Shown piece by piece: positions 13,761-37,917 of a stretch of DNA of 57,562 bases (within the stretch, counting starts at the first letter, position 1; every line of letters begins with the position of its first letter). Position numbers and translations under genes: made by a program. The notes beneath the pieces are model-generated. The model did no database searches, had not been told where the DNA came from, and was given only the letters and a program-made list of their open reading frames with translations. The stretch spans positions 62,001 through 119,562 of the forward strand of contig KZ538144.1 of NCBI GenBank assembly GCA_000934665.2. The letters run 5' to 3'. Source of the stretch: Catajapyx aquilonaris (Eukaryota).

Positions 13761-14262
13761 TATTTTTACAAGTTTTCATTTAGTTCATATTTTGGGTTAG
13801 CTTGTGGCTCCCGTCATCGCTGACTACCCTTTACGGGGAAATGTCGTGATGGTGATGATGATGATTATTATTATTATTACAGTATTATTAGGAAAATTTT
13901 GGGTCATTTCATGTATACGCTACTTTTGATCTTGATATTACAAGTACTTGAACCCGTGTCAGTAGGTAATCTCGTAAGCATAATCCCATGCACCTGTGGT
14001 CAAATCGACCTCCGCAATACTGAAGCTCCTGATGCATACGGCTTATAACGGCCCATCTGATCATATATTATATCGACCTCGGGTGCAACAACACCATTGC
14101 CGTCTATCTGGCAACGTCCGGGTATTCCCGACTTGTTACCCTACGTAGAGGCTGCATATAGCTGGTACTCAGAGGGAGGGGGGGTTAGCAGGGGGAAAGG
14201 TTGTGGAGACGGGGTTGCCTCGGTTACGCCAGCTGAGAGCTGCCGTTATTCGAGACGGAGCC

Positions 14263-14740
14263 ATGGCTAGTCACGGTCGCAAAAGGCTGGTATTTAGTGT
14301 GGACGAAAAGGTTCAAATCATACGCGCTATACAAGGAGGACGTAGCCAAACTGATGTAGGACGCGCTTTTGGAGTACCTAGAACCACTATCACCTGCATG
14401 TGGAAGCACCGGCAGGACATACTGGCTGCTTACCAGGAGAACAAACCTAACAAGATGAAGAGGATTCGGGGTCCGGCCAAGAGTGAGGTGGACGCAGCTC
14501 TTTGGCGTTGGTATAAATCGGAAAAGACCGCCGGTACAGTCATCAACGGACCTATATTGCAAGCCAAATCGGAGGAACTGGCCAGACAGCTGGGTGATAG
14601 CCAATTTGTGTGCTCTGGAGGATGGTTGGACAGGTTCAAGTACAGACACAACATTACATTCGGCCGAGGTAAAACCAGACCGGTACAGCCAGATTCGCCA
14701 GTACAACCAGGATCATCACCGGACATGTGGGTCAAGACAG
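14263..14740 (+). CDS. Variable cassette A: CENP-B N-terminal/Psq HTH + HTH_Tnp_Tc5 (Tigger/pogo-type DNA-binding domain)
   Basis: RKRLVFSVDEKVQII..VGRAFGVPRTTI..EVDAALWRWY..INGPILQAK..FVCSGGWLDRFKYRH; ends aca g|gtatgt (478 nt, phase 1). Confidence 0.85.
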
Positions 14741-15050
14741 GTATGTACAGTGTCTGTATTCAAGTTAAAATGTGATCTACCCAATCAGATTGTGAGATTA
14801 GCCCGTATTATTAGCTGCTCCTCTGAGCTCACGGCTACCGCTACCGCAGCACTGCTACGCGACATTTAAATATCCGGCCACATTATCAAGTTTCAAGTAC
14901 AGATTGTGCAAGTCCTTGACATACTTGAACACGCGCAGGCTAATCGCGCAGGTACATGCTGACGTATCCCAGCAAGGAAACTTGAACCTTGAGCATCCTT
15001 GAACCGGCTGCCACTTCAAGTCCGGGCTTGGAAAGGGACAGTTGCGCATC

Positions 15051-15411
15051 ATGTCGTCCTATTACTGGGCACGGGAGGATACCGTCCTGTTGATTGACCT
15101 GTGGCGCGCACGGCCATGTCTGTGGGACCCACGACACCGTGATTTTCATAAGCAGCACTTGAGGGCACAAGCCCTGCAGGATATGGCTACGGCTGTGTCT
15201 CGCACAAGACCTGGTACCAACGTAGCAGACGTTAGGAGGAAACTGAATGGTCTCAGGACACAATTTTGTGAGCAGTTGAGGAAGGAGAAAAGAGGGCCGC
15301 CTGGTGTCAGAGGAAGGACACTCTGGTGTTTTCAGAAACTCATGTTCCTGCGGGATTCTTCCTCGCCTCGTTCCTGGAGCACCGGGAACACGCACGATAC
15401 TGGCCAGTCAG
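15051..15411 (+). CDS. Variable cassette B: MADF domain
   Basis: WAREDTVLLIDLWRARPCLWDPRHRDF..LRAQALQDMA..DVRRKLNGLRTQF..LWCFQKLMFL; ends tca g|gtatcg (361 nt, phase 1). Confidence 0.85.
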
Positions 15412-16107
15412 GTATCGTCACTTTACACGTGGATTTCTGCGCAGATGCACTGTACTGCCGCGAGCATAAAGATGTGTAGGCCTACGGTATACAGAATCTT
15501 CATGCTCCCGACTGTCCTAACATGGTGAAGACACTGTTGTAGGCAGTTGTAGGACACTGTTGAAGAGAAAGCTATGCGCTAAATTAATTTTTTCACACAT
15601 TATGGTTGTCCCGCAATTTTCCGCGCCGTTTGTTGGACTTTGTAACGCATAGTTAATGAACCATACGCGCAATATTACGCTCGCGTGTTTTCATATTTCC
15701 AACCCACTAGACATGTTTTTCCCCCTGTTCAAACTTGCCGCCTAATCTGCCGGAAAATTCACATATCCCTGGGTTAGACCAGAGGTAATAAGATAACATT
15801 ACCAGAATATTAGGTCCACCGCATTTTTCAACATATTTTATTGCCGCTGATGTCATATGTGAAACAACGATGTCCAGACCGATCTAAACCCCCTGGAGGT
15901 AATATCCAGAAAAAATCAAGTAGATCTGATTCGGTTAGGAGGATGAATACTACACCAGCTTTTGATACAGGCATATAGATTCGCCTCAAAGTGAGGCTGG
16001 GATTAGGCGAGGGCTGGGTCTGGGGCGTGGCCTGGGTTTTATATTGACCAGGGAACAGCAGAACCCTCGGTTTAGTTGAGTTGGTGGTAGCTAGTCGTCC
16101 AGACGGG

Positions 16108-16438
16108 ATGGATTCCGGTGTTGCCGACATGGCTGACATCAGGTCATTACGGAGGATGCGGAGCGCCAATTTTAGCGAATACGAGAAGGATGTGCTGATG
16201 CGGGTCATTGCTGACTTCTTGGAGGTGGTACAGAGCAAAGGGTGTGATAGTCGGACCATCGCGCAGAAGGAACGAGCCTGGAGGGACATCACCTGCAGAT
16301 TCAATTCGTACAAGGGGGTCAACAAACGGGATAAGAAGGGCCTGAGGGAACTCTGGAAACGGATGAAGATGAGGGAACGGAAGAACCCGAGGATCCATCA
16401 GGATAAAGATTCGGATGAAGAGTTATGGTCATGGGAGG
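16108..16438 (+). CDS. Variable cassette C: Myb/SANT-like (MSANTD/Myb_DNA-bind_5 type) domain
   Basis: RSANFSEYEKDVL..KERAWRDITCRFNS..RDKKGLRELWKRMK; ends gag g|gtaagt (331 nt, phase 1). Confidence 0.85.
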
Positions 16439-16759
16439 GTAAGTTTTGTTGTTGTGAGCCGGCAACCCCGCAGTGTGCGTGACATTCTTACTCAACATGC
16501 GCAGGCACCTAAAGGCTCCCCCTGTAGCACCCTCTTCTTTTATTCGTCTGTCTGTGGTCCCCCCCNAAAACATCGATTTCTCCGCCTCGGAGCGTGCGTG
16601 ATGAAGCTGTGGCGTGACTCACGTGTGACACGCCGGGCCCAGCAATTCCTAAACCCGCCCTAGCAACCCCCACAGTCTTTTGAACATCCCAGTCTCTTCT
16701 TCGGATCCAGGAGTGTTGGTTGCATTCCACGTGCGTTTGTCAAATACGGTATCGTCAAC

Positions 16760-16948
16760 ATGAGCGATTTGGCGTTGTTGAAGGTGGTGGTGGAGGGTCT
16801 TCTTCGGGATAGGTCACAGCGGGTACAGCTGATTGACTACCCAAAGGCAAAGTCTGAAGTTTGGCGTAATTTCAAGCTGGTGGTATTGGACGATATGAGG
16901 CAACCTTTAGCGGTGTGTGTCAAATGTTTCAGGACCGTGTCGTATAAG
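16760..16948 (+). CDS. Variable cassette D, exon 1: N-terminal half of a BED zinc finger
   Basis: KSEVWRNFKLV..AVCVKCFRTVSYK; donor aag|gtcagt (phase 0); polypyrimidine-CAG acceptor at 16710 upstream of the ATG. Confidence 0.8.
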
Positions 16949-17684
16949 GTCAGTAGACTGGTATTTCCAAGACTGAGTCACGTGATGGTAGTTTTTTTTC
17001 GTCCCGATAACACGAGCTCGTTGTCGTTGATAAAGTAGTGTGAAGTAGTGTGGGGTCCGGTCTGGTTGAAGTGTCTCAGTGTGTGTCGGATCAAGCTGGA
17101 TTTTTTTTTTTTTCGTAATTTTTTTCTGACGGTATTTCAGATCCTCGAATATAGGTTTGCTACCGAGTTCGCTCTTTCGACCGACTCTCTGTAACGATTT
17201 ATTTGGCTCAGCGTTGCGTATAGCCTAGCCTTTGATAGTATTTGCTGGCTGTTAGGCCCTGCATGGACACAATGCAAAATCTCAGATTATATTATAATAT
17301 ACGGTAATAGCCTATATTATTTATTTATGATACCCCGTGATAACCAGTATTATTTGACGTGGTCAATTTTCCGTTAATTATGCATAGGATTGGATGGTAA
17401 ATTTTTGCGAAAATATGCATATGGATTAAAGGGCATCAATTGGCATGGCAGAATGATTAAAACGTGATCGAATCCACCCTTTTCCCTATATATCGACTTG
17501 TTTACGCATGATTATTGCTGTCAAGGATCGGTCGTTCAACGAGAGAACAAAAATAGGCATGACATTGCAAAGTCGCAGGAATTCACTCATAACTAATTTT
17601 TAAGCCTGAGACATTCCAGCAAGCTCTGTAGCAAACCTGCGTGTTTTTTTTTGTTTTTTTGTCTTCCACGTAAAGGTAGTGTGA

Positions 17685-18098
17685 ATGATGCCTTTTACGC
17701 CGATACGTCGAGTGACCCTAACTTTGGAGCAAAAAATCCAGCTGATCCGAGAAGTGGACGCTGGGGTGCGCAAGAAAAAGGACATTGCGGCCAGCTTCAA
17801 CATTCCGGCCAACTCGTTGTCCACTATCATCAAAGACCGAGACAGGGTGCTTCAGAGATACCAGGCATTGAAGGCTGGAGGGTTGGAGAGACGACGGGTT
17901 AGGTCGCCTCTGTATGGGGATGTGGAAGCACAGGTTTTTGATTGGTACACGACCCATGTCAACCAGGGGGTTGAGCTGGGGAAGGCTGAGATTAGAGCCA
18001 AGGCGCTTGAAGTAGCTCAGGAACTGGCCAAGAACGATTTTCAAGCATCTTCGGGATGGCTGTGTCGTTTTAAAGAGAAATATGGGATCAGATTGCCG
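17685..18098 (+). CDS. Variable cassette E: CENP-B/Psq HTH + HTH_Tnp_Tc5 domain
   Basis: RVTLTLEQKIQLI..KKKDIAASFNIPANSLSTIIK..DVEAQVFDWY..IRAKALEVA..FQASSGWLCRFKEKYGI; donor ccg|gtaatt (phase 0); strong polypyrimidine acceptor at 17675. Confidence 0.8.
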
Positions 18099-18470
18099 GT
18101 AATTTATTTTTAAAATAATTGAGGTGTGACATATTGGTTCTCAAATGAGGTTTTTTATCAGGTCTGATTGTGCAGGTATGACTGGGGTCGCATATTTCCC
18201 ACCAGAAGGGGTGCCAGGCAGTATCTAGTGTCACGACTACTAGATCAATAACTAATCCGCACCAGAACCGAAAAGAACCGGTTCCCAAATTTTCCGGTAC
18301 CAGGCGGTTCCGACCGGTTCCGCTATCGTGCAGCCTTGCACTGCTAGGCAGATCACATGACTTGTATCCCGCTATTTCATTGGACAAAGACTACCCGGGT
18401 ACTGCCCTGTCGTACCCCACCATCCGTGCAAAGTTCAGTTGAGTTCACACCATCATACCGGAGTGTCAGT

Positions 18471-18566
18471 ATGGGCCGTGTTAAAGAGAATCCGATTAGG
18501 GAATACTTCAATTTTGACTCCGTACAGTGTGTATCTGTCTGTAAGATTTGCTCGACTGTAATCAAG
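18471..18566 (+). CDS. Variable cassette F, exon 1: N-terminal half of a BED zinc finger
   Basis: MGRVKENPIREYFNFDSVQCVSVCKICSTVIK; donor aag|gtaagg, phase 0. Confidence 0.8.
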
Positions 18567-18670
18567 GTAAGGGAATTCGAAGGCCTGTTGGTGAAAGGTC
18601 TAACTTATAGCTAGTTGCATTATTTGCACTTCGCATAGGATGAATTGCAGTTTCATTTTGTTCTTTGTAG

Positions 18671-18769
18671 GGAGCACACGGTACAAATCTGGAGAAACAT
18701 GTCAGGTCGAGACATGAGGAGGAGTACGCTATTTTCCTAGAGCTAAAGGAAAACGCGTATCGGCAGCAG
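18671..18769 (+). CDS. Variable cassette F, exon 2: C-terminal half of a BED zinc finger
   Basis: ttctttgtag| GAHGTNLEKHVRSRHEEEY.. completes C-x2-C..H-x4-H; donors cag|gtatcc (phase 0, 18769) or ata g|gtagta (phase 1, 18794). Confidence 0.8.
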
Positions 18770-20110
18770 GTATCCTATTACTTACATTTTATAGGTAGTA
18801 GTACGCCGAGTCTAATTGGAACACGGAGACAAAAGAAAAGTAATAGGAACTGGGATAGGTTCCGTATTTTTGAACCAGAGGCCGGTACATGATCCTACTA
18901 TAAATTTTAGCATAAATTGTTGGTTTTGAAATATAAGTTGTACTTTGCACCTAACCAGATTATTATGTGTTTGTTTTCTTGGACACATTTGTCGTCTAGT
19001 ATACCGTTTGAAAACAACCGATAAGCCTATACCTAGTGGAGATCCGGTGTTCATTTCAGTATTTGGAGCCAGAAGATTAATATTTCAAATTTTGCTGCAA
19101 GATAATTGGAACCAAAAGTGCCTCAGAACCTATCCCAGTACCAGCATCTGAAACCCTTTAGATTGTATTTCTGGGCCATTCTGCCTCAAAGCAGACTATA
19201 ATTATTGACAAAGTGGTGGCTCGATCATCTCAGATTTGCTATTTAAAAATCATGTCCCTACACACACGAGTTGTGCCAAAAATGCAATTAGAGCCACACA
19301 GGTAAAACTTCGAGTGACGTGGTTTAGAACAACCGACTTTAGTGTGTCACATCATTTAAGCATGCTTAAGAATGACACTTTATGTGTTGATGAATTGGCC
19401 AAATCTTACTGCCTGAATTATAATGAGATAGCACGCCACTTAATAAACCCAGTGTGAAGACCTGAATCAACTCAGTTGAAACTTCTTTGAGAACCAATAC
19501 GCAAAAAATCACATAAGTACAGGGCATATCAATATGTAGGGAAAGTGAATTTTTCTTGCTTCACGATTTGAGCACATTCGAAAATTGAGATATGGAGTGT
19601 GTTCCAAGTATCCGGGTCCATTTGAAAGCACTGTCATAACAGTACAGTACTTATCAACATATGGACCTCTGGGATTAATGCATGTGTCACAACTCCACAC
19701 GAGTTTGATAATGTCTCTTGCGTAAAACTTGGTCTTATGATGATGGAGTCACGAGTCACAGTTACTTGGTGCAAAGTCAGGTATACCTCTTGCTAAATGT
19801 TACTCAGAACTTCAGGTTTCCAACTCCTTGTCCAGAGGTAACGAATGATCTCACTGCTCCTCAATTACAGGGTGGGCCATATTTGTTTTGCTCATCTTGC
19901 AGCAGCTGGTGAAAACAAACCTGTGATATTTATATTTTGTATTTAGGAAGCAAAAAAAAAATCACTTCCGCTACTTATAGAACTTTGACTTGCGTCGGTG
20001 GGACTGGAGGGATGATGCCAATGGACAACTGGCAATTAGGTTTTAGCATAATAGTGGACACTATGTGGTATGGTGTTACACCCTTCCCGTTTGGTATCTC
20101 CTGCTACAAG

Positions 20111-20282
20111 GGCCGCGAGGGCACCGGTAGCCTGCATCGTCACACCTGCAACCGTGTGGGTGGTAGTGGACATGGCCAAAGAACGAGTGGACGGCATCAT
20201 AGCATCGTCATACCCATCAGTCACCCTGCCGCAGCAAAATTCCTCGGCTATGGAAGTCGCACACTATCTGATGAAGAGAGAG
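20111..20282 (+). CDS. Variable cassette D, exon 2: C-terminal half of a BED finger plus linker
   Basis: Pyrimidine tract-tacaag| GREGTGSLHRHTCNR..DEERG; ends aga g|gtagtg (172 nt, phase 0 to 1); completes the D1 finger (YK|G..TGSLHRHTC, hAT-like). Confidence 0.7.
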
Positions 20283-21055: not shown

Positions 21056-21287
21056 ATGTAACTATTGCGACCGTACAAGTAGAGCTATATCCCCAACTAG
21101 TTTTGTGTGGCGGTGGAGGCTGCAGCTGGGTGGCCGGGTGGGGGTATAGTCGATCGAAACTCAGCAGAGGGCAGCTTTAGGGGCGTCCCCCACTTGAGTC
21201 TGAGCAGAGCTCTCATTGGACCAGTCAACTCAAGTGCTCCCGGGGAAAAATATCCGGGCCGCCCGGAAACAAACCAGTATTGTCGGC

Positions 21288-21666
21288 ATGGAGCTCAGCA
21301 AGAGGTCGCCCAATTTCAGCAACCTGGAGAAGAACATACTGATCGGATTGGTGAAGAAGTACGTAGGGGTGATTGAGGACAAGAGGAACGATGGTCGGAC
21401 AGTGTCGCAGAAGGAGAAGGCATGGTTGATGGTCACGCAGGAGTATAACAGCAGGAAAGGAGTGACGTTCAGGGACGCTCGACAGCTGAAGAAGTGTTGG
21501 GAGAACCTGAAGACCAGGGCCAAGAGACAGTTGGAGGGCAAGGAGGGACGGCAGGCTTCTTCAGCATCGGATGTGGTACAGGTCATGCAGGAGATGATTG
21601 AGCAAGGGGGGGTGTTGACTGATAGTATGGAGCTGTTTGGAGGCCAATGGACCGTCGTGGATGACG
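21288..21666 (+). CDS. Variable cassette G: Myb/SANT-like (MSANTD3-type) domain
   Basis: KRSPNFSNLEKNILIGLVKKY..IEDKRND..KEKAWLMVTQEYNS..RDARQLKKCWENLKTRAK; ends gac g|gtgagt (379 nt, phase 1). Confidence 0.9.
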
Positions 21667-22829
21667 GTGAGTGTGGGACTCATCCTCCGTGGATTTTCTG
21701 GGGATACTTGGAGCCAGAAGGGGGTGGGTGGGACCTGTTTTATCGCCGCCATTCCGGAACGCCTGCGCTGATGTGCAAATCGATGATTTTTGGTCTCGAG
21801 ACCTGTACTGGTTGAATTGCCGATATTTTTCCTGTCCGCCACATAAATATCTGAGCGTGTCATGCTGCTTTAAATGGGACGGTTCGTACAATATGTTGGG
21901 GCTGACTCCGTCGCGTCGTCTAGTCGTTTGTATGCTTGTATACCAATCCCCCTGCTTTGTAGTCGGCTTGTGTTTGTAAACCGATACGTGCATGCAGTCG
22001 TCTGTTTTCCCGCGCCACAATATAAAATAACGCATGAAATGACGTCGCCATTGTGATAAACGAGACCATGAGTAAGCTGAGTCTAAACTGAGGGTGCAGT
22101 TTTGTCTGCTCGGATATTTGATATTAAGGAAAGAAAGAAGATATGGTCGCGACACGGCTGCGACGTAGAGTAATGGTCAGGAGCTTAAACTACTTGTAGT
22201 TATGCAAGTCTAAAATTACGGCTTTCCATTGCATTGCCCTATTTGATGGGGCCTTAACCTGATTGTCCATCTGATGGTACAGTACTGTACAGTTCTGCTA
22301 CTTGCCAAGGAGTTTTGTCAACTATCAGATTAACATCCACAACTGGATCTCGTGATGTTGCAGCCCAACGTGAAACCTGTCTATTGCGGAATCTCAGACT
22401 TCCGCATAAAATGTCGTGGTCTGCTACTGTTACATTACTGGGAAATTTTATCAACTGCATATAAAGACCTGAAAAATTTAATTTCATAGTTGAAATTGTC
22501 ATCATGATCAAGTAGTATTAGTGCAGTTTTCTGAAAGCGCGGATTTCGTATCGGTTTCCGGTTGTTGGTTGTCCAACAATGCAAAATACCAGTATAATAT
22601 GGAGTTTACTGGACGGACTGACTTGTCATGTGCGGCAAAAATAGACCATAAAAGCTGCCAGTGTCGTTTATATCCCCTCCCTGACGTAAATCCACGTTCG
22701 GCAATTCTGGCAACCACGCCGTGGCTTGAAAACGGTCAGATATGGCATCAGCGCCGAATTCCGTTTCCCTCGACGGATCGTTTCCAGCAGCAACGAGCGC
22801 ATAGACCAGCGGTAATACCCCGGCCGAAA

Positions 22830-23100
22830 ATGTCGTTTGAAACCCCAGCTTCCAGCCTTCTGATCCACCGTGCATCCAACTCTGGACGGCCCTTCTTCCA
22901 CAAGAAGGACGTGGATGATTACGTTCGCGAAAACGACGCCCTGACCATGGTGATAGACCCATCCGGTGTCAAGCATCTGTTCTGCCGATTCTGTGACATG
23001 GAGATAAGCAAACCGGGACACCTCCAGAAGGAGAGGATTAACGAGCACTTGCGGACCAAGCGACACTTCAAGGCCTTGCTTCAAAAGTGTGTGGGAAATG
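22830..23100 (+). CDS. Variable cassette H: CGGBP1-like zinc finger
   Basis: LFCRFCDMEI..KERINEHLRTKRH resembles the CGGBP1 LFCxxC..K..I..HL.sK.H finger; ends aat g|gtaaga (271 nt, phase 1); tttccag| acceptor at 22787. Confidence 0.75.
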
Positions 23101-23134
23101 GTAAGAGTGGAAACCTCGCATTACACATGACAGG

Positions 23135-23255
23135 TTCCAGGAGTAAGGTAGCAGATCTGAAGCTCAAACTGGCCTCCCAAGAGAGGCGCTTCTACAGAGG
23201 GGCGCCTCTCTTGGAGGCCAGTTTGAGCTTCCGATCTGCTACCTTACTCCTGGAA
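23135..23255. repeat. Near-perfect hairpin (~55-bp arms)
   Basis: ttccaggagtaaggtagcagatc..gagaggcgc / gcgcctctc..gatctgctaccttactcctggaa. Confidence 0.85.
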
Positions 23256-23444
23256 GTGACTGTACTGTACATGGACGCGCGATATTTTGAAGCTACCGTA
23301 CCATTCCGGGCGTGAGCGCATGCGCTTCGAAGTAGCAGAAAAAAAGCGAGTTGAGATCCACTGGTCATTTCAATCTGTCGACCGGCGCAGAGTACTGCAC
23401 TCTGACTGCACTACTGCAGTAGGTTGGGAGTGTCGCAGGGAACC

Positions 23445-23730
23445 ATGGCCGAAGAAGCGGAGTATGAATTCACGGAGACGACTAAAGGTGGATTGGCTTT
23501 GCTGTGCAGGGGGCATCGGTTCCGGGTGCGGAAGTCGCGAGGTGACCGTAGGTACTGGTCCTGTACGGCTTGGGACTGCCCGGCAAAAGCTATCACTGTG
23601 TCGGACCATATGACAAAGTCTGTCGGTGTCAACAAAGGATGTCCGAGGCTGGAGCGTGTTGACAAGTGGAATGCGAGCAAGTGGCGGACACAGCCCCTGA
23701 CTGTTCCGCAGGTACCGAGTAGGCTTGCCG
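23445..23730 (+). CDS. Variable cassette I: FLYWCH-like domain (lacks terminal HxH)
   Basis: FTETTKGGLALLCRGHRF..RYWSCTAWDCPAKAIT; donor gcc g|gtacgt (286 nt, phase 1); alternative phase-0 donor at 23711. Confidence 0.75.
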
Positions 23731-24328
23731 GTACGTCTTATTGGACACGTTAGTGGTGTAGGGAATGTAATACAATGATGTGTGCGAATTATTTGCGGGC
23801 GAAGTCAGCAGGTGCGTGTGTGCCAGAAATAACGTATGGTATCCAGAAGGTTGGCTGCCATGGTAGCTGCGATTGATGGGAATAGTGCTTATGAGTTATC
23901 GCTATTAGAATACTGTGATTTGTATTAGATTGTCATATTAGTGTCGGCAAATTCTGCCATTGTTGCTGAGAGCCAGTTAAGTTGGCGCCTAGGCCTCCGT
24001 TGCTTTACAGTGAACTGAACCGGTGCTTTTCGTGTACTTGTCGCCACATTTCTGACCAGCAAATGGACTCAAATGGTGATAACTGCTAAATGATGTCACA
24101 GTTAGCTAATACTAAGTTCACTCAGTATAGCCGCTACGTTGGTTTTGGGCCTTTTTTTTTGCTTTCCTCCCCTCTCCTCCCCTCCCCCACTCAAAGTTGG
24201 TCCGCCATCTTTGTTGTCAGTTGGTTTGTTTGCTGGACGAAGTTTAGCTGGATATCGGGAACCTCCGATTTGTGGTTGGTTTTGAGACCCGCTTTACCCA
24301 CTTAGCTTCGGGGTCGTGGAGTCTTGGG

Positions 24329-24441
24329 GTGGGATTTTCGTCGTACTACTAGTTACTGCTAACTTAGCGGTACCATTGCATTACACTGGTACTGCTAACT
24401 TAAAACTTAAAAGTAACTAGTAGTACGACGAAAATTCCACC
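24329..24441. repeat. Short hairpin/MITE
   Basis: ggtgggattttcgtcgtactactagttact / agtaactagtagtacgacgaaaattccacc. Confidence 0.6.
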
Positions 24442-25123
24442 CTTGTTGTCAGATGAAAGTGCGTGTAGAAAATAATGCCGAAATTTGCACAGTCACACTA
24501 GTTTTATTGTTGGGGATAGGGCTTTGCATTTCGTTGGGAGCCAAATTGACAGTGTTTTCTGTTGAGAATTGGGAGGTACAGGCCGTGTAGGTGTAATGGC
24601 TGAGCGACCAGTTTTAGATTTTATTTATTTCTAAAGATTTTGACATTAAAGCTAATACCACAGTAAGCAAGTAATATGAGGGTGAAAGTGTGTACACAAG
24701 GGTGGTTTTATAGTCTTGAGGGTCTGCCTGAGCCACGCCAACCTTTGTTCCGGCCCAGCCTGCACTAGTTGGAAAATCCTTAGCACTGTGACTTGTTCAA
24801 GAACTACCTGTGTGCAGACCCTTGGATGCTCGCATGTAATTAGGATCTGGCTACCCTTTGGGGTCAGGTATCCAGACATAAATGGGTGTGCAATTGTGCA
24901 GTATGTCATACCCTATGCAGGTTGTAAGCTGGGTTGTGAATAGATATGGAACGCAAAAAGAAGGCGCAGCCTCATGACTGGTTGACGTAGACCTAGAGAG
25001 ATAACTTTAGGTCAAGCTGCTATTTTAGAAAACACATTGAATATTGATGAAGGCGCTGTGTATACAGTGTAGGCCTGTCATCTTGAAATTATTAATTTGA
25101 TATCTGCAATTTCTTTATGCCTA

Positions 25124-26236
25124 CGAGGTGTGATCGAAAAGTTCCTGGACTTTGTTCATAAAAACATTAATTTTTACTTTAAGTCCTAATTTCCAGTGCC
25201 ACCTTCAAAGTAGTCACCTTGGGCACGTATACAATGATCCCAGCGAATTTCCCATTTTTGGAAGCACCCCAAAAAATTGGCCAACCGTAGCAAGTTCAGC
25301 ACCTGCTGAGACTTTGCTTAGATGGGCATTTCCATGCAAACACAGACATACTGTCCGTTCGTAACGCAGGTTTTGCCGACATGTACTAGCGTATTTTATT
25401 GTAACAATGCACACACATTGCATGAAATGGATTAAGCATGCAGTGCATGAATCCTGGCATTGTTATAATAAAATACACTTGTGCATGTAGGCAAAACTTG
25501 TGTTACGAACGGACGGATGCATCATGGAAATGCCCAGATCTCTCTAGTGGAGTCAAAATGCCTCCTTTTCTACCCAAATTTCATTTTAGGGAAGAGGTAG
25601 AAATCACATGGTGCCAGGACAAACGAATAGGCTGGGTGGGGAACAGTGGTCATGTTTTTTGTCCGGAAGTCCCTGACTACACGTGAGGTGTGTGCAGGTG
25701 CATTGTCATGGTGCAGCAGCCAGTCTCTGTTCTTCGACATCTCCGGCCATTTGAGCCAAAATCGTCTCGCAGTAAGACTTGCCGTTGACAGTTTTACCAG
25801 GAGGGAGAAACTCCATATGCACAATTCCTAAAATGTCAAAGAAAATTATCAGCATTGAGTTGATTTTGCTGTTAACTTGGCGCACCACCTTTGAAGCTGT
25901 TAAACCACTCGTATGATATTGCTTGTCTTACAACTTGCTCGTCAAAAAGCCTTGTTCAGCATTTGGTGGGTTGCAGCTGAAATTTTGTTGAGCTGGAAGC
26001 AAAATTTAATACAAATCCTTTGCTCCCTAACACCAGCCATTTTGAACAATCGCAGAAGCACAAGAACGCGGTGTCAAGATAACTGCTGAAACTTGGAAAC
26101 ATGTGCACCTATGAAGACGATATTATTCAGACTAATAGCCGAAAGGTGCTCCTAGCGCTCCCTAGCGTCACAAGGTCGTACCTCCACTGGTTTTCACCGT
26201 ATATCGAGAGTCTGGGAACTTTTCGATCACACCTCG
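25124..26236 (-). mobile_element. Decayed mariner transposon with nested MITE (~25323-25536)
   Basis: TA-cgaggtgtgatcgaaaagttcc TIRs-TA; transposase fragments MLIIFFDILGIVHMEFLPPGKTVN, LLHHDNAPAHTS, HPAYS..LAPCDFYLFPKMK. Confidence 0.9.
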
Positions 26237-27759
26237 TATGTATGATTTTGTGACTTTTTGTCCCATGTAACTACTCACTGGCCTTGATTTACAGTGCATA
26301 TTGATGTGACTTACCAAGTAATCCTGCACAAGTGTTTTGTGTATCTTATACCCATTTGGATCTGAAATGGGATGTGGATCTGAATGGGTACATAGATACC
26401 CAAGTAGTCTGGATTGTATCCTGAACCCAGCTGAAGGTATAATTTCATGAAAACAAGATGATTTAGGGCCGATTTCTCGAACAGTGGTTCAAGTCAGGTT
26501 GAACTGAGTTTGCGTCTACACGCTGGATTCAGTTTAAACTCCCCTTCCGAGTGTGAGCATTTCTCGAGCGTAAACAAACCCTCGGTTACTATGTGAACGA
26601 CAAGCCTCGGTTAGAATGGGGAAGTAGCCTTCATTTTGGAAACTACATAATAAATTCGCCCACATTTTTTGGATTTTTTTGGCATATTCCGTTTCAAGAT
26701 ATCAGTTTCAGTTCCGGAGTAATTGGGGTTTTTATGTAGGCTACTGGTGACGTCACTGTCAGCCTAGAAAATGTTGACGTCACGCGAAGTGAAATGAACG
26801 CAAAAATGGTGTTATAGAACGCGCCCCGTCATTGTCGTAAAAGGCTTCGCTGTTGTTAGCAACCGTCCCATTCCGTGAGCAAGATAGCGGCCGGGGCGCG
26901 TGTTTATTCCAGGTCGCTCAAGTCGCTTTGTATGTGGCAGTGATGCCAACTGGTAGGAAATATCTGTCACCCGAATTCGGCACATTGAGGTCCCTTTTCT
27001 CCACCTCGATGGCCTACATCCGCCTTGCAAATGTTTTCCGTCGTGTCCGCGGTTAATTCAAAGTCAAATTCCTCATATCTCGCAGTCAACCAGGCATTTC
27101 AGTGCACCCTTTCGATTGGCACCACCCGGCTCCGCGGTTTTTCCCGCCAATTTTGAAGGCACTTTTAAATGTGCCGTAATTTATCCAGTAATGTCATTTT
27201 GATGCAACGCAGTGATGGAATGTATGTTTACAGGCATGGGCTAGCTAGTTATGAACAAAAATCCCAAATCCCAGACCAAGGCTAGTTCTCCATTGCACCG
27301 TTGCCACATGTCGCGTCGTCCCCATTTCCCCGAACCGGTCTGAGCTTCAGCGCGAGTCCACTCTGTATAATTGTCATTAACTGCACAGGTAGGGTGGAAC
27401 ATTTAGGAAAAGGTTTGGATGGCCGACTGTGCAAGCAAGCGGAGGGAAGTAGTGGCTGGGGACAAGTGACCCAGACTGGTAATGCCACGGGGACTGTGCA
27501 GTGCGGGGGCAAGGGTTGGTGGGGTATGTTTGCCATGCAAGATTGCCGGGAGAGAGGGAGATTTGAATGCCATGACTGTTGCTATTCTCAGCTAGGTCCT
27601 TTATCATGCCGTGCGACATGCCATGGTTGGCATGTCCTTAATATACAAGGACAGTACTGGTGTGAGTAATAGCCATACAGCAACACAACACAAAGAGCTC
27701 CAACTTCACTTTTAATGAACTGACCAGTGTACAGTATGGAACAAATGGACGCACAGTAC

Positions 27760-27850: not shown

Positions 27851-29425
27851 CGTAATACAGCGAGAAAAGTGCTTTGTTGTTTATGGCGAGGCCCAGTTCG
27901 CAACGAGCAGGCCAGTTTGGCTGGCGTTTGCTCCTAGCCTGCCTTAGACCTCGCCTCCCCTGCTGCACAGTCCCCATGGCGTTGCCGCACTGGGCCACTG
28001 CCCCCAGCCTCTGTCCGCTTGCTCTGTAAGCCATCCGAACCTCAACCGAACATGACTAGGTTTGGTGAGCTGCCACTGCTCTTCTGAGGGAGGGAGCCAG
28101 AAAGAGATTGGGGAGGGAGGGTGGGCTTCATTGGCTTATGGCTGTGCCCCTGGAATTTTACTGCTCAAATAATACATGCCACGTAGCGGTCATTTCCAGG
28201 AACAGCTGTTAATGTCGGTTTCAAAAGATGTTGAATGTTGAGAATGGAGGGGAAAAAGAAGAAGTGATTCTAAGGTGACACTTTTACTGAGTGACTTGAT
28301 TGGTGCCTGTCCTACTGTCCATTTTGGTTTTGTGTCTTGACTCAACAGAGCAATGAACCGAACTGACCAGCCTCGGTGGAAAAGGCCCCTTAGACTACGG
28401 TTTCATCCACTTCATGTAGATAATGTCAGATCTCTTTTCTTCTTCTCCCAAAATGAGGAAAAGCACTTGTCTAATTCAGGATAATGTAAAAAATTTATTG
28501 TAATGTCTAGATGAATTTGTATGCCTCATGTGTGGAATAAAATGAGATTTATCGTCAATTTCGTGGTGCCATCAGGTATCCAACTTTGTCACTCCTTGAA
28601 GATGATGCCATTAGGCAGTTGAGTGTTCTTGTATGAAGTATAGTAACCCAGGTTGTGCTATGAGAAACTCGCAACGGTCCAGACTTACGTGACACCCTGT
28701 ACCCAGGGTGTTTGTTTACATGAAAGATGATGTGGCAGCCACGTGACCTTGACATGTTCAACTCAGCTCCCGCCCAGTGGATTGTGGGAGGTTCATGGTA
28801 GTTGAGTCACCATCCAAGCGATGGCAGGAGGAGTATATTGAACCGAATTTTGACCGCCAAAGTTCGAATTCACTGCACATTTGAGCGCGGGAAATTCAAA
28901 CATCCCCAGATCATATGCTGCATAAACAATTTAAGAAATCTGTGCTTGCATGAAAACTGCAGGTACCTATTTTTTTGAAGGGCCCGATTAACCTTGCTGA
29001 AGTACTGAAGTGTGGGATTTTTAACCTCAATGTGTAGAACAGTTTCCATGCCCTTCCCTCTGATTGAGCTTCAACCTGACTTGTAATGGGAAGTTTTTGA
29101 CAATTTTATGATATTTTGGATCTAGGGAACCAAACCAGAAATGGAAAATTCACGAAAATTATTTTCGGGGGTGGAATTGTACCAGCTGCCTTTCTGAGTA
29201 TTTTAAAATTTTTAGTTAAAGAGGTATATAGGGTTTGGGTACTATCTGCAGGATTCACTTATCCACAGGGGCATATGCCACTGGCCCAATATCCTGCATA
29301 AGTGGGAACGAGTGGGAATAAAAGGTATAAAACCATTACTGTCCAACCTTTAGTGATGATGATTACATATTTGATTATTAGTTTCGGCCAGTTACTACAG
29401 GGAAGGGAGGCGAGTCCTAAACGAA

Positions 29426-29672
29426 ATGGCAACTTACGTACGCTCATCACACGGCAACCGGAAACTTCTCCTGGATGGCTATACATTTTGCTTGAACCGT
29501 GTACGAGGAGTGAAACAGTATTGGGTATGTGACCAGAGGGCAGTGTGTAGAGTGTCAGTCCACGTTGTAGATGGGAGTGTAGTCACAGTGTCTGGACACC
29601 ACACTCACGAGGCCAAGGTTTGGAAGAAGGCAGTTGCATTTGAACCACTCAAGCCACCAAGTGCACCACAGG
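29426..29672 (+). CDS. Variable cassette K: FLYWCH zinc finger
   Basis: YVRSSHGNRKLLLDGYTF..YWVCDQRAVCRVSVHV..GHHTH; ends cag g|gtcagt (247 nt, phase 1). Confidence 0.9.
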
Positions 29673-30512
29673 GTCAGTCCTTTTGCTTCAGTAGTGTTTG
29701 GTGTTTCACCTTTTAGTTGAAATTTTTTAGAGTAGTTTCACAAAATATCGCATATTTTTGTGCAAGCACTTCAGGATTTTGGATAAGTTCAATAAGCATT
29801 GAAGGTGGCAAAGTACAATTTGTATGAAATGTTCTATAGTAATTACTGTACATGGTCAAAAAGACGAACAATATTATGTGCAAGGCTGCTCCAACAAGTT
29901 CAGTGTAAAACTGATGATATGTATGCTCCAAGGGAAATATACTATATGCCATGTAAATGAAATAAGGGCGCGTTTTATGCAGAATGATAGTGTGACTCAA
30001 AAGAAACATTTTTCGCCAATACACTTGGTGCCCCAAATGTGTCGTTAGGTCAGAAAACGAGTTTGTCACGCGCCATACAAACACATCATTACCTTGGGAG
30101 ATGAGATGAATATACCTCGGGGCCTTGAGATATGTTGTACCAAAGTTGGGTTTTTTGTGACTGTGCAAAATATGTGCACTTTCATCTTTTGTTTACATGT
30201 GACTTGTGCTACATAATAGAGGCCTCAAAATGTCGGCTGTTATATCATGGTGGCTCATGAGCCAGCAGAGCAAAAGGCCAGTCGAAGAATCAGAGCCCAG
30301 GAGGAACATTGGCAATAGTAGAGGCAGTAATCAAAAGAGTAAGTCACAGGATAAAAGTGGAGGTGGTGGGCATGAGTGTGAAGCAAAATTGTTGCATGAG
30401 GTAGGACGTGATCAGTACAACACAGTTCATGCACACTTGTGGATAATTTAGGCACATGTCTTGTAAATAGCAAGTCTCCAAGCACCTCACATTCTCCTGT
30501 AGCAAGCAAGTG

Positions 30513-30792
30513 ATGCAGACACACAGGATCAGAAAGCCCAATTGGTCAGAGCCAGAAAAGCAGGTTTTGCTGCAAGAATGTGCAAAATTTGAGCACATCA
30601 TCAGACCAGGGGCAGTGTCCACGACCCCAAAGCAATACCGGCAGAGGGCCTGGTGGGACATTGTCCATAGGCTGAACTGCCGCTTTCCTGAGAGGCCTAG
30701 AAGTGTCAAGGAGGTTCAGAAGAAGTGGCGCAACTTGTGTTATAACATGGTGATTGTGTCAAGGTTGTCCAATCAGGTGAATTGTAGAAGAG
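30513..30792 (+). CDS. Variable cassette L: Myb/SANT-like domain
   Basis: RKPNWSEPEKQVLL..RQRAWWDIVHRLN..RSVKEVQKKWRNL; ends aga g|gtaggt (280 nt, phase 1); ctcctgtag| acceptor at 30502. Confidence 0.85.
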
Positions 30793-30960
30793 GTAGGTTC
30801 GTTTGAAGTTATTCACAACATGATGAACTACAGAGTGAAGGCCAGTAACTGAAAAGATGTAACAGGGTGAATAAGATACACTGAACACAACTGGCAAATG
30901 TACTTTCACATGTAGGCAACACTCAAGCAGTTGCAAACCGTCCATAATGGGCTGCACTAC

Positions 30961-36545: not shown

Positions 36546-36994
36546 AAAAAAAAAACATTGCAAAATAGGCCTACTCTTGGGATAGCAAGGCCTCTTACAA
36601 GAAAATTGATGCTGATAGAAACATTTTGACTTTAAATTCAAAATAAAGTGCATATTAATACATAATAAAAGGTGAAAAAGGGCTCAATTAACAAAATGAT
36701 TGTTAACCATGAATTAGTCATATTGAGCAATGTGCAGTGTACTTTCTGCAAAATAAGGTATGACTGTTACAAAGAAATGGAGGGTGATTGACACATTCTG
36801 ACTTCATATTTGGAATCAGCGCATATGATTGCATTAGAAACAGCTAAAATTGTTCATGTGCCAAAATCATTGTTGACTGTGTTATCTGTGCTTTCCGATT
36901 ATCCGGGCACACCTGCAGATTAATTAGCATAATCAGGAGTACATGTATTTATCCACCTGCAGATTAATTCACAGGTCATCTCACTTATTTCCAG

Positions 36995-37710
36995 AGTCAT
37001 CTCGTCTGGTCCGTGAGGAAACGCCTCAGCCCCCATCTATCCCTGCTCCCCATTCATCAATAATTTCTCCTCCATCTGCTCCCTCCACTGCCCCTCAGAT
37101 GCTTTGTGTTCGATGGGGCAACTATGACACAAATCTACATTCAATGTTTGGTCGTCTTCTGACCTCTCAACATTTCGTGGATGTAACCTTGACTTGTGAA
37201 GGTCGTTCTGTACGCTGCCACAAGATGATACTCTCTGCTTGCTCCTCGTACTTCGAAACACTCCTTACTGAGAACCCTTGTCCTCATCCCATCATATTCA
37301 TGAAAGATCTCCAGTTCTGGGAAGTTCAAGCCCTGGTAGACTTCATGTATAAGGGCGAAGTCAATGTGCCACAAGAAAAGCTGCCCTCATTGCTTAGGGC
37401 AGCTGAGTGCCTGCAGATTAAGGGACTGGGAGCATCTGGGGCAGACAAGCCTCAAGAGATGCAGGGAATTGCACAGCCATCTGGGTCTGTACAGATGATG
37501 CAAGGAGGTAGCACTAGTGCAGTGAGTGTGGTGCCAGCCAAGAGGAAGAGACAGGAACTGTCTACCCAAGGGTTTGAGTCACACTACCAAAAAATGGCCA
37601 AGGGGGAGGTGGCCACAGCAAGAATGTCTATGGAGTGCCCACATGAGGAAATGGCAGCTGTCATCTTACCACATGGGGATTTGGGATTGGATTCTGTGGA
37701 TCAGTCAGAT
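36995..37710 (+). CDS. Constant exon 2: Tramtrack-type BTB/POZ domain (37099-37428) plus NLS-like PAKRKR
   Basis: LCVRWGNYDTNL..FVDVTLTCEG..HKMILSACSSYF..NPCPHPIIFM..ALVDFMYKGEVNV..LLRAAECLQIKGL; tttccag| phase-1 acceptor, gat|gtaagt phase-0 donor. Confidence 0.95.
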
Positions 37711-37917
37711 GTAAGTTGTGATTGATTTTTTTGCCACTACATCAGTGTGGGAACAAACTGACAGAGAGAAGATAATGATAAGCCATATTGGAGTGAAATG
37801 TGTAGGGAACGGTCATGTGCCCCTACTGTCCCTATCACCATCTCCTGTCTCGGTCAAAACACTACCAAGGAGACAGTCAGTTTAGTGCTTTGCTGTACAC
37901 CTTGAGGTGCATGCAGT

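Follow-up and report, generated by a model that had tools for sequence, protein, structure and literature searches.

The 57,562-nucleotide (nt) window analysed here comprises positions 62,001 to 119,562 of contig KZ538144.1 of Catajapyx aquilonaris (assembly GCA_000934665.2), and contains a row of exon cassettes for DNA-binding domains followed by a single exon for a BTB domain. The analysis centres on cassettes D, E and F in the middle of this row, where two predicted zinc fingers, D and F, are each divided into two half-exons (D1 and D2, F1 and F2). Pfam was run on all 297 stop-to-stop open reading frames (ORFs) of at least 60 amino acids in the window. DNA-binding-domain cassettes were found on the plus strand only, between 14.1 and 30.8 kb, and one BTB exon was identified at 36.9-37.7 kb; outside the range of 14 to 38 kb, this ORF scan gave no such domains. 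The cassettes, at least 11 and each led by an ATG, comprise two with a CENP-B helix-turn-helix, one MADF, three Myb/SANT, two BED-like and two FLYWCH cassettes, as well as one with an unclassified finger (Table 1).

Predicted cassette array and constant BTB exon

The BTB exon has a phase-1 acceptor, tttccag/AG, at 36995 (exon boundaries are marked by a slash) and a phase-0 donor, GAT/gtaagt. Two minor phase-0 acceptors were identified in it, at 36997 (cagAG/) and at 37099 (cctcag/ATG, score 3.4), the latter just 5' of the BTB Met. For the single-exon cassettes A, B, C, G, H, I, J and K, the best donor by a rough matrix is in phase 1 in all eight cases, and joining them to 36995 places the BTB domain (LCVRWGNYD...) in frame in all eight; the same holds for D1-D2. 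An in-frame ATG lies shortly 5' of the domain in 11/11 cassettes. The AGs 5' of these ATGs are no better than random by a crude matrix, with five of the 11 above the control median and none above the 90th percentile. The exceptions to this absence of acceptors from the variable exons are F2 and D2. ATG-led cassettes, a donor phase common to the single-exon cassettes and poor upstream AGs together fit the grammar of a variable-first-exon cluster.

Judged from its sequence, the region is probably, though by no means certainly, the central part of a BTB transcription-factor gene with many cassettes, whose front end varies while the back end is constant, and in which D and F would form the cognate fingers D1-D2 and F1-F2. 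Each mRNA would contain a single cassette, with an ATG and one DNA-binding domain of its own, spliced to the constant exon at 36995 for the linker and a BTB oligomerisation domain of Tramtrack-like type. As in the protocadherin, UGT1A and sDscam clusters, the mechanism would most likely be a choice of promoter or first exon. Unlike the other nine cassettes, D and F would each be split by a phase-0 intron at K/GxxGT, and D2 would have a phase-1 exit leading to the BTB exon. Cassettes E and F presumably came to lie inside the 3.2-kb D intron by insertion or duplication of new cassettes.

Table 1. Predicted features of the locus (positions in the window)
Feature	Positions	Strand	Description
Cassette A, CENP-B_N + HTH_Tnp_Tc5	14263..14740 (ORF 14149-14772)	+	phase-1 donor CAG/gtatgt
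Cassette B, MADF	15051..15411 (ORF 15003-15476)	+	phase-1 donor
Cassette C, Myb_DNA-bind_5	16108..16438 (ORF 16048-16479)	+	phase-1 donor AGG/gtaagt
D1, BED-like cassette D, exon 1	16760..16948	+	own ATG, W..F motif, VWRNF...CVKC
D intron	16949..20110	+	3162 nt; holds cassette E and entire cassette F
E, CENP-B_N + HTH_Tnp_Tc5 cassette	17685..18098	+	Pfam E 1.8e-10 and 7.6e-14
Cassette E ORF, CENP-B_N+Tc5	17685-18110	+	Pfam
F1, BED-like cassette F, first half	18471..18566	+	YFNF, CKIC
F intron	18567..18670	+	104 nt
F2, finger F, second half	18671..18769	+	GAHGTNLEKHVRSRH; 99-nt exon, phase 0 at both ends, very strong acceptor
D2, finger D, second half and 40-residue tail	20111..20282	+	GREGTGSLHRHTC; phase-0 acceptor, phase-1 donor
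Cassette G, Myb_DNA-bind_5	21288..21666 (ORF 21204-21812)	+	phase-1 donor ACG/gtgagt
Cassette H, unsplit CRFC...H-x5-H finger	22599..23100 (ORF 22494-23312)	+	no Pfam family; phase-1 donor ATG/gtaaga
Cassette I, FLYWCH	23445..23730 (ORF 23406-23750)	+	phase-1 donor; profile positions 1-48 of 62 only
Cassette J, FLYWCH	29426..29672 (ORF 29375-29713)	+	phase-1 donor
Cassette K, Myb_DNA-bind_5	30513..30792 (ORF 30471-30803)	+	phase-1 donor GAG/gtaggt
Constant exon, Pro/Ser-rich linker and Tramtrack-like BTB (LCVRWGNYD...)	36995..37710 (ORF 36928-37722)	+	Pfam BTB E 2.2e-24

Predicted nested exons and their splice sites

The exons of the nest follow each other in the genomic order D1, E, F1, F2, D2, with E and all of F within the D intron. 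Both fingers are split at K/G-x-x-G-T in phase 0, between the CxxC pair (CVKC in D, CKIC in F) and the His/Cys ligands, and both have GT/AG sites. The common split point and the nesting had been described in an earlier note on this DNA and were read again directly from the sequence; a frame check also upheld its statement that the four joins D1-D2, F1-F2, D1-F2 and F1-D2 are collinear and in frame.

The donor of D1 reads ...TCG TAT AAG/gtcagt at 16948, in phase 0 relative to the ATG at 16760. For F1, the donor ...GTA ATC AAG/gtaagg at 18566 is likewise in phase 0 relative to the ATG at 18471, and a further in-frame ATG is located upstream, at 18357. Exon F2 begins at 18671 with the acceptor ttgttctttgtag/GGA (preceding sequence ttcattttgttctttgtag) and ends at 18769 with the donor CAG/gtatcc; its frame is open up to weak phase-1 donors on the 3' side at 18794, 18839 and 18884. 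The D2 acceptor at 20111, ctgctacaag/GGC (preceding sequence ctcctgctacaag), is of the weak AAG/G type, and the D2 donor at 20282 is GAG/gtagtg, in phase 1. The last G of D2 and the AG which opens the constant exon at 36995 form one Glu codon. With a length of 172 nt, D2 leaves its last codon incomplete (phase 1), and the final 'E' of its translation in the earlier note is therefore finished by the next exon. Among the 3482 AGs of the window, a rough matrix placed the F2 acceptor at the 99.9th percentile, that of the BTB exon at the 99.5th and that of D2 at the 86th. The splice-site scores of D2 are 0.1 for the acceptor and 4.2 for the donor.

In cassette E, an in-frame TGA is present immediately 5' of the ATG, so that entry into E from an upstream exon in that frame is impossible. 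The donor of E is CCG/gtaatt at 18098, in phase 0, with the next in-frame stop four codons further on; the end of E in the earlier note has been corrected to this position and phase. A single N at 16566, one of two in the window, lies 194 nt 5' of the D1 ATG, and the assembly is thus imperfect near the nest.

Relatives of the BTB gene

A phmmer search with the constant exon against 1.84 billion representatives, from a library clustered at 50% identity, gave 14,602 matches at E<=1e-3, and the best of these are BTB proteins with 54-70% identity. For several relatives, the similarity extends into the linker 5' of BTB (query residues 6-33), which favours a coding acceptor at 36995 over translation from the internal Met. 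From the best 150 relatives, 68 were scanned with Pfam, namely those with a BTB match beginning no earlier than residue 39, minus the long proteins P0021, P0068 and P0090. A domain N-terminal to BTB was identified in 18/68: Myb_DNA-bind_5 in five, Myb_DNA-bind_4 in one, CENP-B_N with Tc5 in two, MADF in one, FLYWCH in three, zf-BED in four and Phage_integrase in two. The remaining proteins contained HTH_psq behind BTB (5/68) or BTB alone (45/68). P0009 and P0011 share 438 identical C-terminal residues and differ in their N-termini; this is the only such pair in the best 150, and, given the clustering at 50% identity, such a pattern is to be expected of isoforms from a single gene.

The two Phage_integrase (tyrosine recombinase) domains stand at the N-termini of the close relatives P0045 and P0052, where a DNA-binding cassette would otherwise be, a hint that loci of this type also take up cassettes originating from mobile elements.

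Pairing of the half-exons

The 150 best relatives of the constant exon were used as the database for local BLAST searches with the joins. D1+D2 matched P0019 over 91 columns spanning the junction, with 32% identity and 39.7 bits (E 8e-7 in this 150-protein database). P0019 is annotated at NCBI as 'uncharacterized protein isoform X10 [Rhodnius prolixus]' and is the closest match to D1+D2. Like the predicted D1-D2 product, it consists of an N-terminal D-type finger (SSVWQKF...CSAC...YKSRSLGTSQFRRHICH), a Pro/Ser-rich linker and BTB. Across the junction region it reads ...CSACLMVFNYKSRSLGTSQFRRHICH, and its finger ends with the same GT..(F/L).RH.C pattern as D2, in which the RH.C is unusual. The cassette of P0019 stops right after the last ligand, whereas D2 has an extra tail of 40 residues.

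All open stretches with an AG in front that lie between D1 and the BTB exon (n=531) were considered as candidate second exons. For the completion of D1 against the P0019 cassette, D2 ranked 1/531 with a gain of 27 (null mean 2.4, standard deviation 3.2, maximum 15), and F2 gave a gain of 1. For the completion of F1, F2 ranked 1/531 both against P0021 (gain 39) and against P0006 (gain 45), with D2 in sixth place. F1+F2 matches residues 1687-1735 of P0021, and F2 matches residues 58-86 of P0006. D2 and F2 each being top-ranked for their own first half, the cognate pairs are the conserved ones; as far as comparison with relatives can tell, the evolutionarily kept products are the fingers D1-D2 and F1-F2.

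In residues 1-86 of P0006, the F2-like half KGNHAANLERHVWRRH stands behind an Arg-rich N-terminus devoid of a CxxC, and the break falls at the same K/G point. Either the first exon of P0006 is mispredicted, or the protein is a genuine isoform carrying half a finger without its partner.

Evidence for BED-like fingers

BED zinc fingers are characterised by an aromatic pair, a CxxC and H-x(3-5)-H/C, and both fingers fit this consensus. Finger D contains VWRNF, CVKC and HRHTC (H-x3-C), and finger F contains YFNF, CKIC and HVRSRH (H-x4-H). A strict second-half motif, G[TS]..L..H..[HC], occurs twice in the six frames of the 57.5-kb window, at F2 and at D2. The zf-BED family was certified by Pfam in four BTB relatives, and a local BED profile was built from these four fingers and applied to joins made in silico. 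The scores were 26.1 bits for D1-D2, 26.2 for D1-F2, 9.8 for F1-F2 and 9.7 for F1-D2, and they were reached by 0, 0, 1 and 1 per 1000 shuffles, respectively. With a five-seed version of the profile, the same joins scored 21.1, 25.6, 16.7 and 13.4 bits, with 0/500 shuffles reaching the score in each case. By the profile from four fingers, swapped second halves lie within 0.1 bit of the cognate ones, and the halves are interchangeable with respect to the family consensus.

For the D-type finger of P0019, 26-30% identity to the four certified BED fingers was determined, and nine columns are invariant in all five, with S, V, W, C, C, G, T and H among them. The BED fold is a beta-hairpin bearing the Cys pair, with the His pair on a helix behind it. 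The AlphaFold model of this Rhodnius finger has a mean predicted local distance difference test score (pLDDT) of 64, with strands at 18-25, 30-38 and 44-46 and a helix at 53-63. A Foldseek search with the model against PDB found nothing at E<=0.001. BED domains or a BED-domain protein account for five of the six best rows (two ZBED3-containing complexes, ZBED1, ZBED2 and Hermes) at a non-significant E of 0.26-1.4, and these rows are not independent evidence, since the model was built from an alignment containing BED sequences. In the ESM Atlas, the named clusters nearest to residues 40-112 of P0019 are zf-BED and zf-C2H2_12 at 0.88, under the 0.9 level, and this serves as a lead only.

Taken singly, D1, D2, F1 and F2 gave 0/4 Pfam matches at E<=10; a protein homolog search with D1 alone and D2 alone gave no scoring match; and phmmer with D1 against PDB returned chance rows only, such as ribosomal uL30 (E 0.03). 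The frame just 5' of D2 (...GISCYK/G) was considered as a decayed copy of D1 and rejected, since 2189/5000 shuffles reached its score, and 109/1000 in the DNA comparison. The second-half motif, the profile scores and the ranking against relatives favour real half-fingers. Cassettes D and F are designated BED-like, and the support is better for D than for F.

Frame relations and alternative explanations

Several observations weigh against the explanation by cognate fingers in a gene with variable front ends. All exon boundaries are predictions drawn from the sequence, the reading frames and the homologs, the homologs themselves being predicted proteins, and the acceptor of D2 is weak (AAG/G, 86th percentile). 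With their best donors, E-BTB and F1-F2-BTB are out of frame with 36995 and run into stops at residues 161 and 88, respectively, so that the simple rule of direct splicing from every cassette to the BTB exon breaks down in precisely the two that lie inside the D intron. The direct alignments of D1 with F1 and of D2 with F2 are non-significant, a fraction of 0.22 and 0.16, respectively, of 2000 shuffles reaching the score, which leaves the shared split point as the sole sign of paralogy between D and F. Among 6295 open 25-residue windows, D2 still came first for the completion of D1, but narrowly (27 vs 24 for the next). P0019, a relative with an unsplit D-type finger, gave no Pfam zf-BED match at E<=5, and the F-type finger of P0021 scored 18.1 bits for zf-BED (E 0.0028), under the gathering cut-off of 20.6 bits for this family (PF02892). 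Among the 6-8-mers in the 300 nt 5' of the 11 ATGs, no shared promoter word was found beyond background.

The earlier note lacked the locus-wide frame logic which decides which joins reach the BTB domain. The phase of the constant acceptor is matched by 8/8 single-exon cassettes and by D via D2, but not by E and F2. Phase-0 exits are present precisely in the cassettes nested in the D intron, and phase-1 exits in 8/8 cassettes outside it; together with the phase-0 entry and phase-1 exit of D2, this suggests D2 as a shared exit exon. In such a three-promoter nest, D2 would be the common last variable exon through which D1, E and F1(-F2) all pass to BTB, and a first exon landing in the D intron would have gained function by capturing the D2 acceptor. 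All four half-joins are open into the BTB exon when routed via D2, as seen for D1-F2-D2; E and F1-F2 meet stops when joined directly, yet the routes E-D2, E-F2-D2, F1-F2-D2 and F1-D2 to BTB are open. Cassette E also has an intact CENP-B/Tc5 region and is therefore probably in use. However, there are other ways out, either by the phase-0 acceptors at 37099 and 36997 or by the weak phase-1 donors 3' of F2, and the weakness of the D2 acceptor counts against a shared exit as well. The CENP-B-type relatives P0010 and P0011 pass from ...GIRLS and ...GIRELQTE, respectively, directly into the common linker, with nothing D2-like in between. The phase of E can also be accounted for by the loss of one base or by an assembly error at CCGG/GT, as one extra G in the donor CCG/gtaatt would give phase 1. 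Thus, E and F2 may reach the BTB exon via D2 or via a minor acceptor, and a shared exit for the whole nest is a tentative and rather unlikely explanation. Cassettes A, B and C spliced to F2 or D2 are frameshifted and meet stops in 6/6 joins, and transcripts from upstream must therefore avoid the strong F2 acceptor.

Hybrid fingers, with the Cys pair and the His pair from different cassettes, had been proposed in the earlier note as a means to widen DNA-binding specificity. This proposal held in so far as every join is in frame, the BED profile is nearly indifferent to swaps, and the F2 acceptor, the strongest in the nest, is the first met by a transcript started at D1, which makes a D1-F2 join plausible as an RNA species. 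F2 is moreover a symmetric exon whose inclusion or skipping is neutral for the frame, and the annotated relative P0006 has an F2-like half after a non-finger N-terminus. Against it, only the cognate pairs are conserved in relatives, F1+D2 gave no match at E<=0.01 among the 150 proteins, D1-F2 reaches BTB only with D2 included, leaving an orphan half finger, and the N-terminus of P0006 resembles a mispredicted Arg-rich frame. No intron pairing was found to organise the choice, the duplex energies for D1-D2, D1-F2 and E-D2 lying within those of shuffles (z = 0.33, -0.07 and -1.09). The hybrids D1-F2 and F1-D2 are formally possible, and D1-F2 may occur as a splicing by-product owing to the strong F2 acceptor, but hybrid fingers as a device for new specificity are quite improbable. 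A fully combinatorial nest, with D1, E and F1 as first exons, F2 as an optional symmetric exon and D2 as the obligatory exit, all matched in phase, could yield as many as six N-termini in frame with a single BTB scaffold. Among them would be hybrid BED fingers with re-paired metal ligands and altered recognition, made by alternative splicing within one zinc-binding unit; this appears improbable. F2 might also be the regular partner of D1, with D1 and F1 as alternative first halves and D2 as a linker exon containing GTGSLHRHTC by coincidence. The F2 acceptor is far stronger than that of D2, D1-F2 scores as high as any join in both BED profiles (25.6 and 26.2 bits), and F2, with its H-x4-H, ends more like a canonical BED finger. 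Nevertheless, the Rhodnius D-type isoform has the ending of D2 and not that of F2, the gain is 1 for F2 vs 27 for D2, and with only two occurrences of the strict second-half motif in the window a coincidence at D2 is unlikely; this pairing is considered very improbable. The same low standing is given to D as a decaying relic, in which D1 and/or D2 would no longer be spliced together after the insertion of E and F, and only F and the single-exon cassettes would be functional. The low scores of both D2 splice sites and the lack of a relative for D1 or D2 alone would fit this explanation, but the frames of D1 and D2 are open, the four metal ligands and the correct phases are retained, the phase-1 exit fits the constant exon, and the similarity to the Rhodnius isoform spans both halves.

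Other features of the array

For cassette H the start is uncertain, with the ATG at 22599 and an in-frame ATG further downstream as candidates. Its finger, FCRFC...INEHLRTKRH, has zf-C2H2_2 as the best Pfam match (E 0.046). An H-type finger, VCRFC...IKEHLASKRH, was identified in P0017, and the BTB start of this protein, LCVRWGNYDSN, is the closest to that of the window among the relatives compared by sequence. Cassette I is devoid of the terminal His pair present in cassette J, and may be truncated, degenerate or completed by another exon.

A near-perfect hairpin at 23135-23255, with 43-nt arms (98% complementary) and a 35-nt loop, begins 35 nt past the donor of cassette H and may be a miniature inverted-repeat transposable element or a structured intron element; similar hairpins were identified at 24327-24442 and 25353-25514. 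The intron between cassettes I and J contains the remnant of a mariner-type transposase (Transposase_1, E 3.7e-11, 25709-25927, minus strand), flanked by 35-nt inverted repeats at 25117-25151 and 26209-26243 which are 89% complementary. A common docking site before the constant exon was not found, the maximum being 3/13 donor flanks per 20-nt bin compared to a control mean maximum of 2.9.

Significance and comparison to known systems

The nest poses a splicing puzzle, since transcripts from A, B, C and D1 must skip both the very strong F2 acceptor and the weak D2 acceptor, or else suffer a frameshift (A-C) or produce a hybrid finger (D1). It can be regarded as a natural experiment on the swapping of zinc-finger halves, and the rules of exon choice in cassette arrays could be tested on it by a few junction counts.

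With BED zinc fingers (PF02892; ZBED, BEAF-32/DREF and hAT transposases), D and F share the aromatic W/Y..F, the CxxC, the loop and GT..L..H-x(3-4)-H/C. Unlike in these proteins, an intron here cuts the finger between the two ligand pairs. BED fingers end in H-x3-5-H, whereas finger D ends in H-x-H-x-C (RHTC).

In the protocadherin alpha and gamma and UGT1A clusters, tandem variable 5' coding exons are joined to a constant part. The predicted locus shares with them and with chelicerate sDscam tandem variable 5' coding exons with their own starts, one constant acceptor and, for the single-exon cassettes and D, a fixed phase. However, those clusters make surface receptors or enzymes, whereas the products here are predicted transcription factors. 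A further difference is that D and F each consist of two exons and thus have internal acceptors, one cassette being nested in the intron of the other, and that neither a conserved promoter word nor a docking/selector RNA pairing was detected here. The nearest mechanistic analogue is sDscam, for which isoforms by alternative promoters are described in PMC9258826.

By its best matches, the BTB domain of the window resembles the Tramtrack (TTK) kind. Passages of PMC11426971 describe TTK-type BTB domains as usually N-terminal, with isoforms differing at the C-terminus, and as having the FxLRWN motif. In the window, this motif is degenerate and reads LCVRWG, with R and W kept and F, L and N replaced by L, V and G, respectively; close relatives have VCLRWN. 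An association of BTB with CENPB and THAP genes in Octopus is mentioned in passages of PMC10027918. Full-text literature searches returned no description of a locus of the present kind, and annotated relatives exist.

The larger finding is the locus itself, as a predicted BTB gene similar to Drosophila lola and mod(mdg4) with reversed polarity. In lola and mod(mdg4), one BTB module is likewise combined with many alternative small DNA-binding modules, including FLYWCH, from a cassette row in one locus. There, the BTB is in the constant 5' part and the DNA-binding exons are the alternative 3' ones, whereas here all cassettes precede the BTB exon and share its strand, so that the variable part is 5' and N-terminal and BTB belongs to the constant 3' part. 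In the relatives, too, the DNA-binding domain sits at the very N-terminus. The cassettes here also span at least six different folds, and their collinear order would make trans-splicing needless. If the gene model is true, the locus would be an isoform factory like lola or mod(mdg4) with its polarity reversed, in which one BTB module is provided, probably by promoter choice, with at least 11 DNA-binding heads.

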